35,117 nucleotides of DNA from Candidatus Micrarchaeota archaeon (GCA_015522865.1 WALN01000064.1:1-35117), one strand, 5' to 3'. Positions 22,092 to 35,117 are shown, numbered from the stretch's first letter. Translations and numbers: made by a program. Notes: generated by a model not told the origin, from the letters alone.

Positions 22092-22727
22092 TTATATACT
22101 CTTTGTGGGTGGTTGCTGCTCTTCTCTCAGAATTATACTGATAAATTTCCATATAGATGTTGCAAGCGGAGTATTTGAAACAACACCATAAATTTTATTT
22201 TTGCTTTTAATCTGCCCTGCAAGCCCCTTTATTCCTATTGGTGCTTCTGATACTATTTTGATAAGCAAAAATGGTTTTCTGCATAAAATGATCAACGAGT
22301 TTTTGTCCGAGAAGAGTATATAGTATTTTATCTTTTTAGTTACAAGCACATGAAGAACCCTGGCGCGGATTACTTCTAATGAAAGCTCAGTATCTATTTT
22401 ATTTTTGGCTTTTTTCGAGAGCGAGTTTTTTACATAGAATAAACATAGCCAGTAAACCACCATATAAACGAAAAGAGGGATAAAAATTGCTACTAGTAGT
22501 AGTGCTACCTTTCCATAAAGTCCAAATTTATTTGCAAGCTCAACATACATGAAGGCGGAAAAAAATGCAACGATTAATATAACTATTGCTTTGCCTTCAA
22601 AACTTTTCAATTTTAGAAGCAATTTTGAAATTAACTCCGCTGCTTTCATATTATTACCACTTAAAACATTAATAAAAACATAACTATTAGCTGAAACAAT
22701 GGGTAGGAATAAAAAATTATTCTTCAT
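22092..22727 (-). CDS. Membrane protein, hypothetical (start uncertain; internal ATG at 22649 is possible)
   Basis: Three hydrophobic helices followed by a soluble C-terminal domain. The first 26 codons would overlap the likely tRNA-Gln promoter region. Confidence 0.45.
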   Translation of the reverse strand: MKNNFLFLPIVSANSYVFINVLSGNNMKAAELISKLLLKLKSFEGKAIVILIVAFFSAFMYVELANKFGLYGKVALLLVAIFIPLFVYMVVYWLCLFYVKNSLSKKAKNKIDTELSLEVIRARVLHVLVTKKIKYYILFSDKNSLIILCRKPFLLIKIVSEAPIGIKGLAGQIKSKNKIYGVVSNTPLATSIWKFISIILREEQQPPTKSI

Positions 22728-22848
22728 GTTTTATTTATAGTCCCGTAGTCTAGTGGCCAAGGATGACAGGCTTTGGACGAAGCTCTCTTTTTCTTGTAAG
22801 AAAAAGAGACCTTCAGGAGAGAAAAAGAACGGGTTGTAGAAGACCTTC

Positions 22849-22912
22849 AGGAGAGAAAAAGAACAAAAATGAAAGAAGAACTTCTTGATGCAGCTTCTTT
22901 CTAAGAAGCTGC
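22849..22912 (+). repeat. 64-nt intra-intron direct repeat, copy 1
   Basis: aggagagaaaaagaacaaaaatgaaagaagaacttcttgatgcaGcttctttctaagaagCtgc is 62/64 identical to 23027-23090. The shorter repeat gaccttcaggagagaaaaagaac also occurs at 22808-22830 and 22842-22864. Confidence 0.9.
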
Positions 22913-22960
22913 TTTGGAACATCTTAGTACTTTCTTTCTTCTTAAGAAAGAAAGGACCAG
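22912..22960 (+). repeat. 49-nt module shared with the tRNA-His downstream repeats
   Basis: ctttggaacatcttagtactttctttcttcttaagaaagaaaggaccag matches 34938-34986 and 35038-35086 at 47/49 positions. Confidence 0.9.
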
Positions 22961-22990
22961 CACCTCTCTTAAAAAGAGAGCTGCACCAGA

Positions 22991-23025
22991 GAACTTCTTG
23001 ATGCAACTTCTTTCTAAGAAGTTGC
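22991..23025 (+). repeat. Partial (35-nt) third copy of the hairpin part of the 64-nt repeat
   Basis: gaacttcttgatgcaacttctttctaagaagttgc is identical to 23056-23090. Confidence 0.9.
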
Positions 23026-23026
23026 T

Positions 23027-23090
23027 AGGAGAGAAAAAGAACAAAAATGAAAGAAGAACTTCTTGATGCAACTTCTTTCTAAGAAGTTGC
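23027..23090 (+). repeat. 64-nt intra-intron direct repeat, copy 2
   Basis: See copy 1. It differs only at 23071 (A versus G22893) and 23087 (T versus C22909), which are the two partners of one stem base pair. Confidence 0.9.
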
Positions 23091-23170
23091 GGAGAAACCT
23101 GTAGACGCCGGTTCGAATCCGGTCGGGACTATTTAAAGAATAATGGTGAAATAATATAGGTGAGATTGAA

Positions 23171-23359
23171 TTGGGCAGAGTAAAAGGAGTTATGATTAGA
23201 AAAACGGCTGAGGTCTTACTTAAGAAATTGGAGTTTTCTTCTGATTTCGATTACAACAAGAAGAAACTTAAAGAAGTACCCGGCCTTAATAGTAAACTAT
23301 TCAGAAATAAGATAGCTGGCTATATAAGCAAAAAACTGCATAATGAATCAAATGTTTAA
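23171..23359 (+). CDS. rps17e: Ribosomal protein S17e
   Basis: xGRVKGVMIRKTAEVLLKKL.. matches the S17e N-terminus. The first codon of the open frame is ATT, directly after an in-frame TGA at 23168-23170. GGTGA SD at 23160-23164. Confidence 0.8.
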   Translation: MGRVKGVMIRKTAEVLLKKLEFSSDFDYNKKKLKEVPGLNSKLFRNKIAGYISKKLHNESNV

Positions 23360-34783: not shown

Positions 34784-34906
34784 GGCGGCGATGGTGCAGT
34801 GGTTAACATCTCGGACTGTGGATCCGAGGACCCGAGAAGCCTTTCTTTCTGAAGAAAGAAATCCTTGGGAAAGAAAGACAAGGGAATTCGAGTCTCGGTC
34901 GCCGCC
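34784..34906 (+). tRNA. tRNA-His (anticodon GTG at 34818-34820) with encoded G-1 and a 50-nt intron in the T-arm (between positions 53 and 54); CCA not encoded
   Basis: Eight-bp acceptor including G-1:C73 (GGCGGCGA / TCGCCGCC), T8, A14, anticodon stem TCGGA/TCCGA, loop CTGTGGA. The T-stem CCGAG (34832-34836) is separated from T-loop TTCGAGT plus CTCGG (34887-34898) by 34837-34886. Confidence 0.75.
34837..34886 (+). other. Non-canonical tRNA-His intron (position 53/54)
   Basis: aagcctttctttctgaagaaagaaatccttgggaaagaaagacaagggaa contains a CTTTCTTTC/GAAAGAAAG-type hairpin (34842-34861) of the same family as in the 49-nt module. Confidence 0.7.
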
Positions 34907-34937
34907 CTTAGCTCTCATTCTATTCTTAGCATTCTTT

Positions 34938-34986
34938 CTTTGGAACAACTTAGTACTTTCTTTCTTTTTAAGAAAGAAAGGACCAG
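34938..34986 (+). repeat. 49-nt shared module, His repeat unit 1
   Basis: ctttggaacaacttagtactttctttctttttaagaaagaaaggaccag is 47/49 identical to 22912-22960. Contains an 11-bp hairpin at 34956-34980. Confidence 0.9.
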
Positions 34987-35037
34987 TTCGAGTCTCGGTC
35001 GCCGCCCTTAGCTCTCATTCTATTCTTAGCATTCTTT

Positions 35038-35086
35038 CTTTGGAACAACTTAGTACTTTCTTTCTTTTTAAGAAAGAAAGGACCAG
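35038..35086 (+). repeat. 49-nt shared module, His repeat unit 2
   Basis: Identical to 34938-34986. Confidence 0.9.
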
Positions 35087-35117
35087 TTCGAGTCTCGGTC
35101 GCCGCCCTTAGCTCTCA

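Follow-up and report, generated by a model that had tools for sequence, protein, structure and literature searches.

A predicted 320-nt intron of repeated hairpin modules in a Micrarchaeota tRNA-Gln gene, with hairpin variants that suggest preserved pairing

Archaeal BHB tRNA introns at position 37/38 are cut by EndA and joined by RtcB. The published lengths of archaeal tRNA introns lie between 11 and 129 nt, the median being 12-25 nt (PMC4090602), and in the Asgard archaea the median is ~22 nt (bioRxiv 10.64898/2026.10.13.758758). In ARMAN-2 (Candidatus Micrarchaeum), introns of 25 nt and 13 nt at positions 37/38 and 59/60 are cut by the epsilon2 endonuclease, a broad-specificity enzyme that cleaves relaxed-motif introns at both sites (PMC3239211). 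In the Thermoproteales, introns of very similar sequence occur in different isoacceptor tRNA genes, at canonical and non-canonical sites (Fujishima 2010, as summarised in PMC4090602); introns so similar in different tRNA genes point to copying between those genes at the DNA level. The origin and spread of archaeal tRNA introns is an open question, and no general route of arrival emerged from the 2026 census of Asgard tRNA introns (bioRxiv 10.64898/2026.10.13.758758). A literature search retrieved no description of introns of several hundred nt built from repeats in Micrarchaeota.

In the present study we have analysed a 35,117-nt stretch of DNA (the window), which is contig C64 of a Candidatus Micrarchaeota genome of 652 kb in 65 contigs, with 38% G+C and ~80% completeness. 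Its prolyl-tRNA synthetase shares no more than 57% identity with any other sequence, and the named best matches belong to Candidatus Micrarchaeota/Micrarchaeia. Under default settings ARAGORN finds no tRNA in the window, and Rfam reports tRNA-His alone there. Once introns are permitted, ARAGORN reports a tRNA-Gln(UUG) gene containing a 320-nt intron, with the following parts:

22739..22776, plus strand: 5' exon of tRNA-Gln(UUG), tRNA positions 1-37, anticodon TTG at 22773-22775 (sequence; ARAGORN on the joined exons)
22777..23096, plus strand: 320-nt intron at the canonical position 37/38, composed of hairpin modules (ARAGORN with introns; in-silico splicing)
23091..23097, plus strand: proposed 3' splice motif (inferred from the sequence)
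23097..23131, plus strand: 3' exon, from position 38 to the discriminator A, CCA not encoded (sequence; in-silico splicing)

The exons joined without 22777-23096 are recognised by ARAGORN as a complete tRNA-Gln(ttg), as is expected of the exons around an archaeal BHB-type tRNA intron. A reading made beforehand from the sequence alone (the sequence-only reading) had placed a duplicated 64-nt segment in an intron, and this segment is indeed located inside 22777-23096. The predicted folding energy of the whole pre-tRNA-Gln(UUG) is -135.6 kcal/mol, far below that of its shuffles (z = -5.25), and the 320-nt intron contains no known Rfam family. By inspection, GGAG (23091-23094) can pair with C32-U35 (CUUU) in a 4-bp central helix with two G.U pairs; A23095, A23096 and A38 (23097) would form a 3-nt bulge adjoining the anticodon stem; and the 5' splice site would be situated between the 4-bp helix and the first hairpin of the intron (hairpin A), in a multi-branch loop, an arrangement of the relaxed hBH type. 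Minimum-free-energy folding of the pre-tRNA does not recover this weak splice-site helix, and the splice motif is therefore counted as inferred. A genome from a different family keeps the 3' motif in its own tRNA-Gln intron, as GGAGGAA/A (the slash marks the splice site), and the tRNA-Gln(CUG) intron of the present genome (contig C14) ends alike in ...AAGAAGTTGC-GGAGAA/A, that is, ...GTTGC-GGAGAA/A.

Judged from these features, the 320-nt intron would be of the splicing-endonuclease type (BHB-like) at position 37/38. Like BHB introns, it starts one base 3' of the anticodon and its exons rebuild a complete tRNA, and the predicted 4-bp helix between positions 32-35 and the 3' end of the intron, with its 3-nt bulge by the anticodon stem, would be a further likeness; unlike them, it is a 320-nt mosaic of hairpins with a relaxed hBH 5' site, and its splicing is predicted. 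With ARMAN-2 the present genome has the phylum and intron sites in common, and by analogy its relaxed motifs would be expected to be cleavable, whereas the introns tested in ARMAN-2 are 25 and 13 nt long and those described here measure 170-450 nt and are made of common repeat modules. A crude search with loose motifs and phmmer over the six-frame ORFs of this ~80% complete genome gave no candidate for a splicing endonuclease gene. An Orc1/Cdc6-like ATPase matched by phmmer in that search was discarded as false by its own sequence, the seed sequence having served as a locator only. No uninterrupted tRNA-Gln turned up in the genome at this degree of completeness.

The intron can be divided into the following modules:

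22779..22814, plus strand: hairpin A, the 5' module, with a pyrimidine arm, a GT loop, a purine arm and a conserved C.C mismatch (inverted repeat I3)
22815..22830, plus strand: mirror strand R1 (AGGAGAGAAAAAGAAC), which holds the exact mirror of the purine arm of hairpin A (12-nt mirror match)
22841..22864, plus strand: second copy, 24 nt long, of the final part of hairpin A with its mirror strand, the last 16 nt being R2 (direct repeat D2, 100% identical to 22807-22830)
22849..22912, plus strand: 64-nt unit, copy 1, comprising R2, a linker, the leader GAACTTCTTGAT and hairpin B in the G:C state (repeat comparison)
22890..22912, plus strand: hairpin B, copy 1, with G22893:C22909, one of two G:C copies genome-wide (genome comparison; folding)
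22913..22959, plus strand: module C, with a hairpin at 22927-22957 and a conserved A.G mismatch (inverted repeat I7)
22960..22989, plus strand: module D, hairpin GCACCTCTCTT-AAA-AAGAGAGCTGC with a C.C mismatch, followed by ACCAG (module comparison)
22991..23025, plus strand: hairpin B, copy 2, with its leader, in the A:T state (third partial copy; identity to 23055-23090)
23027..23090, plus strand: 64-nt unit, copy 2, comprising R3, the linker, the leader and hairpin B in the A:T state, A23071:T23087 (repeat comparison)
23068..23090, plus strand: terminal hairpin B, abutting the 3' splice-site helix, with GGAGAA next (sequence)

The first 64-nt unit is opened by R2, and its linker and its hairpin B with leader occupy 22865-22912. 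Module C is common to the tail of the tRNA-His region and to many T-loop introns, with BLAST copies on contigs C14, C38, C47, C49 and C56 and at 34938/35038 of the window. The ORFs of the intron are short, of low complexity and located on both strands, and were treated as spurious.

When the gene is aligned to its own genome by BLAST, the modules are located on ~20 contigs and in every case within or next to tRNA genes, and the same modules build introns of 170-450 nt in at least 10 other tRNA genes. Eight further tRNA genes give complete tRNAs after removal of 172-450-nt introns in silico, and tRNA-Gln(CUG) does likewise. In-silico splicing yields the following introns:

tRNA-Tyr: two introns, of 30 nt in the anticodon loop and 450 nt in the T-loop
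T-loop introns: Thr-UGU 321 nt, Lys 172 nt, Leu-GAG 274 nt, Arg-GCG 305 nt
Anticodon-loop introns: Ala-CGC 325 nt, Gly-CCC 191 nt, Ser-GCU 202 nt, together with both Gln genes

A second site of the module family is found in the window:

34785..35117, plus strand: tRNA-His(GUG) gene whose T-arm contains an intron; after it come 100-nt tandem repeats made of the gene's 3' end and module C

The intron sites used in the genome are 37/38, and 53/54 and 59/60 in the T-arm. The hairpin A module, with compensated variants in its sequence, is also the first module in the anticodon loop of Gln-CUG, Ala, Thr, Glu, Arg, Tyr and Gly introns. A few arrays are positioned just outside tRNA genes, namely upstream of tRNA-Asn (contig C23), beside a tRNA 3' end (contig C38) and in the tRNA-His tail (34887-35117). 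Contig C1 is a near-duplicate of the tRNA-His region (94% identical), a strain or paralog mixture. The two tRNA-Gln introns have common ends (A with R; B with GGAGAA) and different tandem middles, built of the 64-nt unit in one and of a 101-nt unit in the other (C14), which suggests that the ends of the introns are stable while the middle is turning over by duplication. The module junctions are variable, and the arrays would grow and be reshuffled as stretches are duplicated locally, in tandem or as segments, and as introns exchange sequence; as palindromes, the modules can recombine in either orientation.

In the Thermoproteales it is whole short introns that are alike, whereas here modules smaller than the intron are shuffled, tandemly amplified and inverted; furthermore, unlike in that group, some of the arrays are found just outside tRNA genes. 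The modules resemble REP/BIME and MITE repeats in being short, multi-copy, imperfect palindromes, non-coding, clustered and present in both orientations, and they differ from them in being confined to tRNA introns and their flanks, and in having strictly a pyrimidine arm followed by a purine arm, with a mirror strand; neither terminal inverted repeats nor target duplications nor a linked transposase were noted in the arrays read. The introns of many tRNA genes in this genome are several times above the published length range, and because they visibly share, duplicate and invert small modules, copying between tRNA genes becomes readable from the sequence. Standard tRNA finders overlook genes with such giant introns, so that the tRNA sets of such genomes are under-called.

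Outside this genome, the region was compared by BLAST with 67 further genomes of its order; none gave a hairpin B, and one gave C/D-like modules. Exact-pattern scans for hairpin B gave no match in collections of genome contigs and metagenome contigs, and patterns for hairpin B and modules D and C gave none in a viral contig collection, which leaves a viral source of the modules unsupported. The D-module pattern is absent from the metagenome contigs and is found in one other Micrarchaeota MAG (NC_groundwater_1743), of another family, where the stem reads CTCTTTT/AAAAGAG instead of CTCTCTT/AAGAGAG, a compensated change. One genome of another family thus has C/D-like modules and the general architecture. 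By this sequence comparison, the hairpin modules that build the giant tRNA introns appear to be a lineage-specific family.

The sequence-only reading started from the duplicated 64-nt unit, for which it claimed that the two copies differ at exactly two positions, that these positions pair with each other in a stem, and that a third partial copy carries the A:T version. All three observations are reproduced here. The copies at 22849-22912 and 23027-23090 are identical at 62/64 positions, both in the repeat search and in an explicit comparison, and G22893 versus A23071 and C22909 versus T23087 are their sole differences. The two positions are the partners of pair 4 in the perfect 10-bp stem GCA(G/A)CTTCTT-TCT-AAGAAG(C/T)TGC, the hairpin that RNA folding predicts in both units. 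The partial copy carries the A:T state, since the 36 nt of 22990-23025 match 23055-23090 at every position. The unit is also present in the tRNA-Thr intron (C3:3755-3818), there in the G:T state, and its three copies show all three states of pair 4: G:C, A:T and G:T. Their predicted folding energies are -15.3 kcal/mol for G:C, -12.9 for A:U and -12.9 for G.U; an A.C version, which is never observed, would fold at -8.6 kcal/mol, a cost of ~4 kcal/mol. The 64-nt unit alone does not fold much better than its shuffles (z ~ -1.7), because pyrimidine and purine tracts of such composition pair readily.

The chance that two random substitutions in 64 nt fall on the two members of the same stem pair, with 10 pairs available, is ~0.005, or 0.0017 if the specific complementary base is demanded, and the two differences are thus not due to chance under a model of independent substitutions. 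This model is itself doubtful for the 64-nt unit, because both versions of hairpin B and the G:T intermediate pre-exist elsewhere in the genome, and one duplication or conversion event could therefore yield both differences together. As hairpin B has three states genome-wide, the two 64-nt copies differ by which hairpin allele each carries, and the difference is better described as allelic variation in a recombining repeat family than as a change after this duplication. The base-pair difference need not have arisen in the duplicated unit and may predate the duplication. A search via the neighbouring proteins found no sister-strain copy of the tRNA-Gln(UUG) locus on record.

Hairpin B with the leader CTTGAT occurs at 32 loci on 15 contigs, 16 of them in sense and 16 in antisense relative to the host tRNA, multi-copy, dispersed and in two orientations as palindromic repeats are. 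At pair 4, 25 loci have A:T, five G:T, two G:C (the tRNA-Gln(UUG) intron and contig C59) and none A:C; a terminal mismatch, from G to A, is seen in a single copy. The loops read TTT, TCT, TTA, GTG or TTG, and since all four combinations of pair state and loop are present, the history of hairpin B is either reticulate, through recombination, or marked by recurrent mutation. The G:T copies amount to 5/16 of those in host-sense orientation, in which the transcript reads G.U, and to 0/16 of the antisense ones (Fisher one-sided 0.022, from few independent events). These five may represent 2-3 events only, and the hairpin B counts are in general not independent, because the copies are paralogs that exchange sequence. 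Gene conversion between just two alleles had been named beforehand as one observation that would undo the structural reading; the alleles do pre-exist, and the family has three states.

The sequence-only reading had looked to homologous introns of related genomes for a test of covariation. The comparison made here is limited to paralogs, as hairpin B is found in none of the other genomes searched: among 11 distinct rows, one of 10 pairs covaries and eight are invariant, and 87/500 shuffles reach the score, so that the covariation is not significant and hairpin B does not show the covariation of a structured RNA element. The caution that a single covarying pair is suggestive and not conclusive was well placed. 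The loop positions are more variable than the stem positions (P ~0.013). When ~80 module hairpins are oriented by their hosts, the isolated non-conserved mismatches are 7 G.T/T.G, 0 A.C and 1 T.T; the stems are nearly all Watson-Crick, with ~8 non-conserved mismatches in ~900 pairs. The stems of diverged sister modules differ at many positions and are still complementary. A census of perfect hairpins was used for sequence diversity alone, since it is circular for the first 9 pairs, the hairpins having been chosen as perfect. In the sister modules D/E/F, a C.C mismatch is conserved at the position homologous to the clamp, which indicates that pairing there is not generally required. The orientation of module F with its UUCG tetraloop was considered as an RNA-level marker and dropped as uninformative, because module F is found both ways relative to its hosts.

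On this evidence, we consider it moderately probable that hairpin formation is constrained within a family of modules that duplicate and exchange. The selection on structure proposed in the sequence-only reading survives in part: the absence of A.C, the restriction of G:T to the sense orientation, the undiminished stability of the G.U fold, the more variable loops and the complementary stems of diverged sister modules speak for it; the hairpin is a 32-copy paralogous repeat and no unique structured element, and its covariation is not significant. As a sign that the ability to form the hairpin is preserved, the hairpin B variants are weak but real evidence. Pair 4 would change from A:U through G.U to G:C, or in the reverse direction, by way of a wobble intermediate that has no stability cost in RNA. 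Long introns would need self-contained local hairpins in order that the exons form the cloverleaf and the endonuclease splice-site helix, and the terminal hairpin B would stack directly on this helix. The hairpin B series offers a handle on the question of whether such modules are tolerated DNA palindromes or RNA folds needed for pre-tRNA splicing.

The near-perfection of the stems exceeds the need of RNA-level selection and fits equally well with very young copies or with palindrome correction at the DNA level. It is here that an origin at the DNA level has to be weighed, in which intrastrand template switching or gene conversion among the 32 copies acts without selection on RNA, the stems are perfect through the copying mechanism and the youth of the copies, and complementary double differences arise in one step. 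Template switching in palindromes is known to make and keep perfect hairpins and to produce multibase 'compensatory' changes (PMC8794818; PMC7202029; PMC3820800). Quasipalindrome template switching (PMC8794818, PMC7202029) would account for the complementary double changes and for the near-perfect Watson-Crick stems with very few wobble pairs, and the presence of modules in both orientations relative to the host gene, the four pair-state/loop combinations with the recombination or recurrence that they indicate, the pre-existence of the G:C and A:T alleles elsewhere and the non-significant covariation of hairpin B are all in its favour. It does not predict that five uncorrected G:T copies persist, all oriented so that the transcript has G.U. 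The A.C intermediate should arise just as often, and it is absent (7 G.T to 0 A.C when all module hairpins are counted). Furthermore, the C.C and A.G mismatches of modules A, C and D remain uncorrected in many copies and in another genome, and this persistence argues against efficient correction from arm to arm. Taken together, we regard a purely DNA-level origin as improbable, though a serious contender to constrained hairpin formation.

The purine arms have a further property. An exact mirror of the arm is found within 35 nt downstream for 13/15 distinct arms, which 0/2000 permutations reach, and the mirror strand covaries with the arm, changing when the arm changes. Purine arm and mirror are joined by a turn, either CCTTCAGG or a small stem-loop. 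The mirror strand for hairpin A makes up the first 16 nt of the 64-nt unit, and the rule also holds in another genome (L002). Mirror repeats are a hallmark of H-DNA, and the modules, hairpin A with 22815-22830 among them, have the exact homopurine/homopyrimidine mirror symmetry of H-DNA-like repeats. The parts are arranged, from the pyrimidine arm through the loop, the purine arm and a short turn to the mirror purine strand, in the geometry of an intramolecular purine-motif triplex.

These observations lead to a reading in which the modules are functional themselves, as a putative triplex or protein-binding element, as a stable excised and probably circularised intron RNA, or as H-DNA; the conserved base pairing would then be a consequence of such a function. 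The mirror rule with its covarying strand, the triplex geometry, the extension of the rule to a second genome and the conservation of module D and of the splice motif across families agree with such a function. We nevertheless hold it to be unlikely, as hairpin B is in no other genome or collection searched and is randomly oriented relative to the transcript, the copy number and order of the modules differ even between the two tRNA-Gln paralogs, no Rfam family matches, and purine-motif triplexes are considered weak in RNA. The weakest reading, very improbable in our view, is that independent complementary neutral substitutions or an assembly error in a repeat-rich short-read metagenome bin produced the pattern: the bin has 65 contigs, module arrays are often at contig ends and many of them break contigs, and strains or paralogs are mixed at the tRNA-His region, but the chance probability given above is low, the three states of hairpin B recur at many loci with unique flanks, and the repeats of 35-64 nt are shorter than typical reads, contig C64 continuing through the tRNA-Gln(UUG) intron into unique genes on both sides.

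Beyond the constraint on pairing, we tentatively suggest, as a possibility that we would not call probable, that hairpin and mirror together are selected, triplex-capable units of a proliferating element specific to tRNA introns in Micrarchaeota, which would have inflated BHB introns to 170-450 nt. The units would be copied between tRNA genes, tandemly amplified and inverted. If this were true, the modules would provide a route, visible in the sequence, for the gain, growth and spread of archaeal tRNA introns, and the A:U/G.U/G:C series of hairpin B would be one trace of selection at the RNA level.

The tRNA-Trp box C/D guide intron is also a long archaeal tRNA intron, and a functional one; the tRNA-Gln intron differs from it in having no C/D boxes, kink-turn signature or Rfam match. 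The CUUGAUGC leader was considered as part of a box C/D or kink-turn element, a reading that the variable 3' flanks of hairpin B led us to reject: the leader CUUGAUGCA resembles a C box, and no conserved D box or G.A pairs follow hairpin B. A permissive Rfam scan of 22650-23200 returned sub-threshold, hairpin-like miRNA/sRNA noise alone. In the present genome, the tRNA-Trp gene on contig C18 has an 80-nt intron with C- and D-box-like motifs.

The pyrimidine-loop-purine hairpins, short repeat modules from which the long tRNA introns of this genome are built, are each followed on the 3' side, after a short turn, by an exact mirror image of the purine arm. This mirror rule is kept by 13 of the 15 distinct purine arms and was matched in none of 2000 permutations, and the mirror sequence covaries with its purine arm. 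Read from the sequence, the succession of hairpin, turn and mirror strand is the geometry of a putative intramolecular triplex. The hairpins with mirror strand and the sister modules are located as follows:

Window 22779-22830, hairpin and mirror strand in the tRNA-Gln(UUG) intron; further cases on contigs C3, C14, C22, C27, C31, C33, C47 and C48 of the same genome and in L002, from another Micrarchaeota genome
Window 22960-22984, example of the sister modules D, E and F; others on contigs C34, C49, C51 and C56

The sister hairpins D, E and F have a GCA...TGC clamp in common. At the place where hairpin B, the 10-bp hairpin of the tRNA-Gln(UUG) intron, has its variable A:T, G:T or G:C pair, they carry a C.C mismatch that is conserved, or else a 2x2 internal loop. 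In one orientation module F is closed by a C(UUCG)G tetraloop.

Default ARAGORN found no tRNA in the whole window, tRNA-His was the only match there at the Rfam gathering threshold, and only 15 tRNAs pass Rfam genome-wide. Given the failure of default detection here, the number of tRNAs is underestimated in genomes of this kind. Further tRNA genes with introns, and module arrays outside tRNA genes, are:

Window 34785-35117, tRNA-His(GUG) and repeat tail; second version at contig C1:1-229
Contig C34:2170-2740, tRNA-Tyr(GUA) with two introns
Contig C18:14127-14280, tRNA-Trp(CCA) with an 80-nt intron
Contigs C23:7028-7300 and C38:1780-2060, module arrays outside tRNA genes

tRNA-Tyr(GUA), directly followed by tRNA-Asp, is interrupted by 30 nt in the anticodon loop and by about 450 nt in the T-loop, the latter intron being the longest found in the genome and made from the same hairpin modules. 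These modules are absent from the tRNA-Trp(CCA) intron, which has motifs resembling a C box (GCGATGATT) and a D box (CTGA) and is probably a classical intron-encoded box C/D guide RNA. In tRNA-His(GUG) an intron of about 50 nt lies between T-stem and T-loop; downstream of the gene stand exact tandem repeats of 100 nt, each composed of the gene's last 21 nt and module C (also present in the tRNA-Gln intron), which extend past the contig end. The C1 copy is 94% identical and has one repeat only.

The assembly is limited by the module repeats. Contigs end inside module arrays at the C27 end and C37 start, and at the C3 and C38 ends. The tRNA-Glu(UUC) 5' exon on C27 and 3' exon on C37, with array sequence common to both, are evidently parts of one gene. 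The C38 end bears a 3' exon whose acceptor is matched by the tRNA-Thr 5' exon on C3. Of the arrays outside tRNA genes, that on C23 directly adjoins an opposite-strand tRNA-Asn gene at the gene's 5' end, and that on C38 consists of 84-nt tandem units beside a tRNA 3' end; thus, the modules accompany tRNA genes without being strictly confined to introns.
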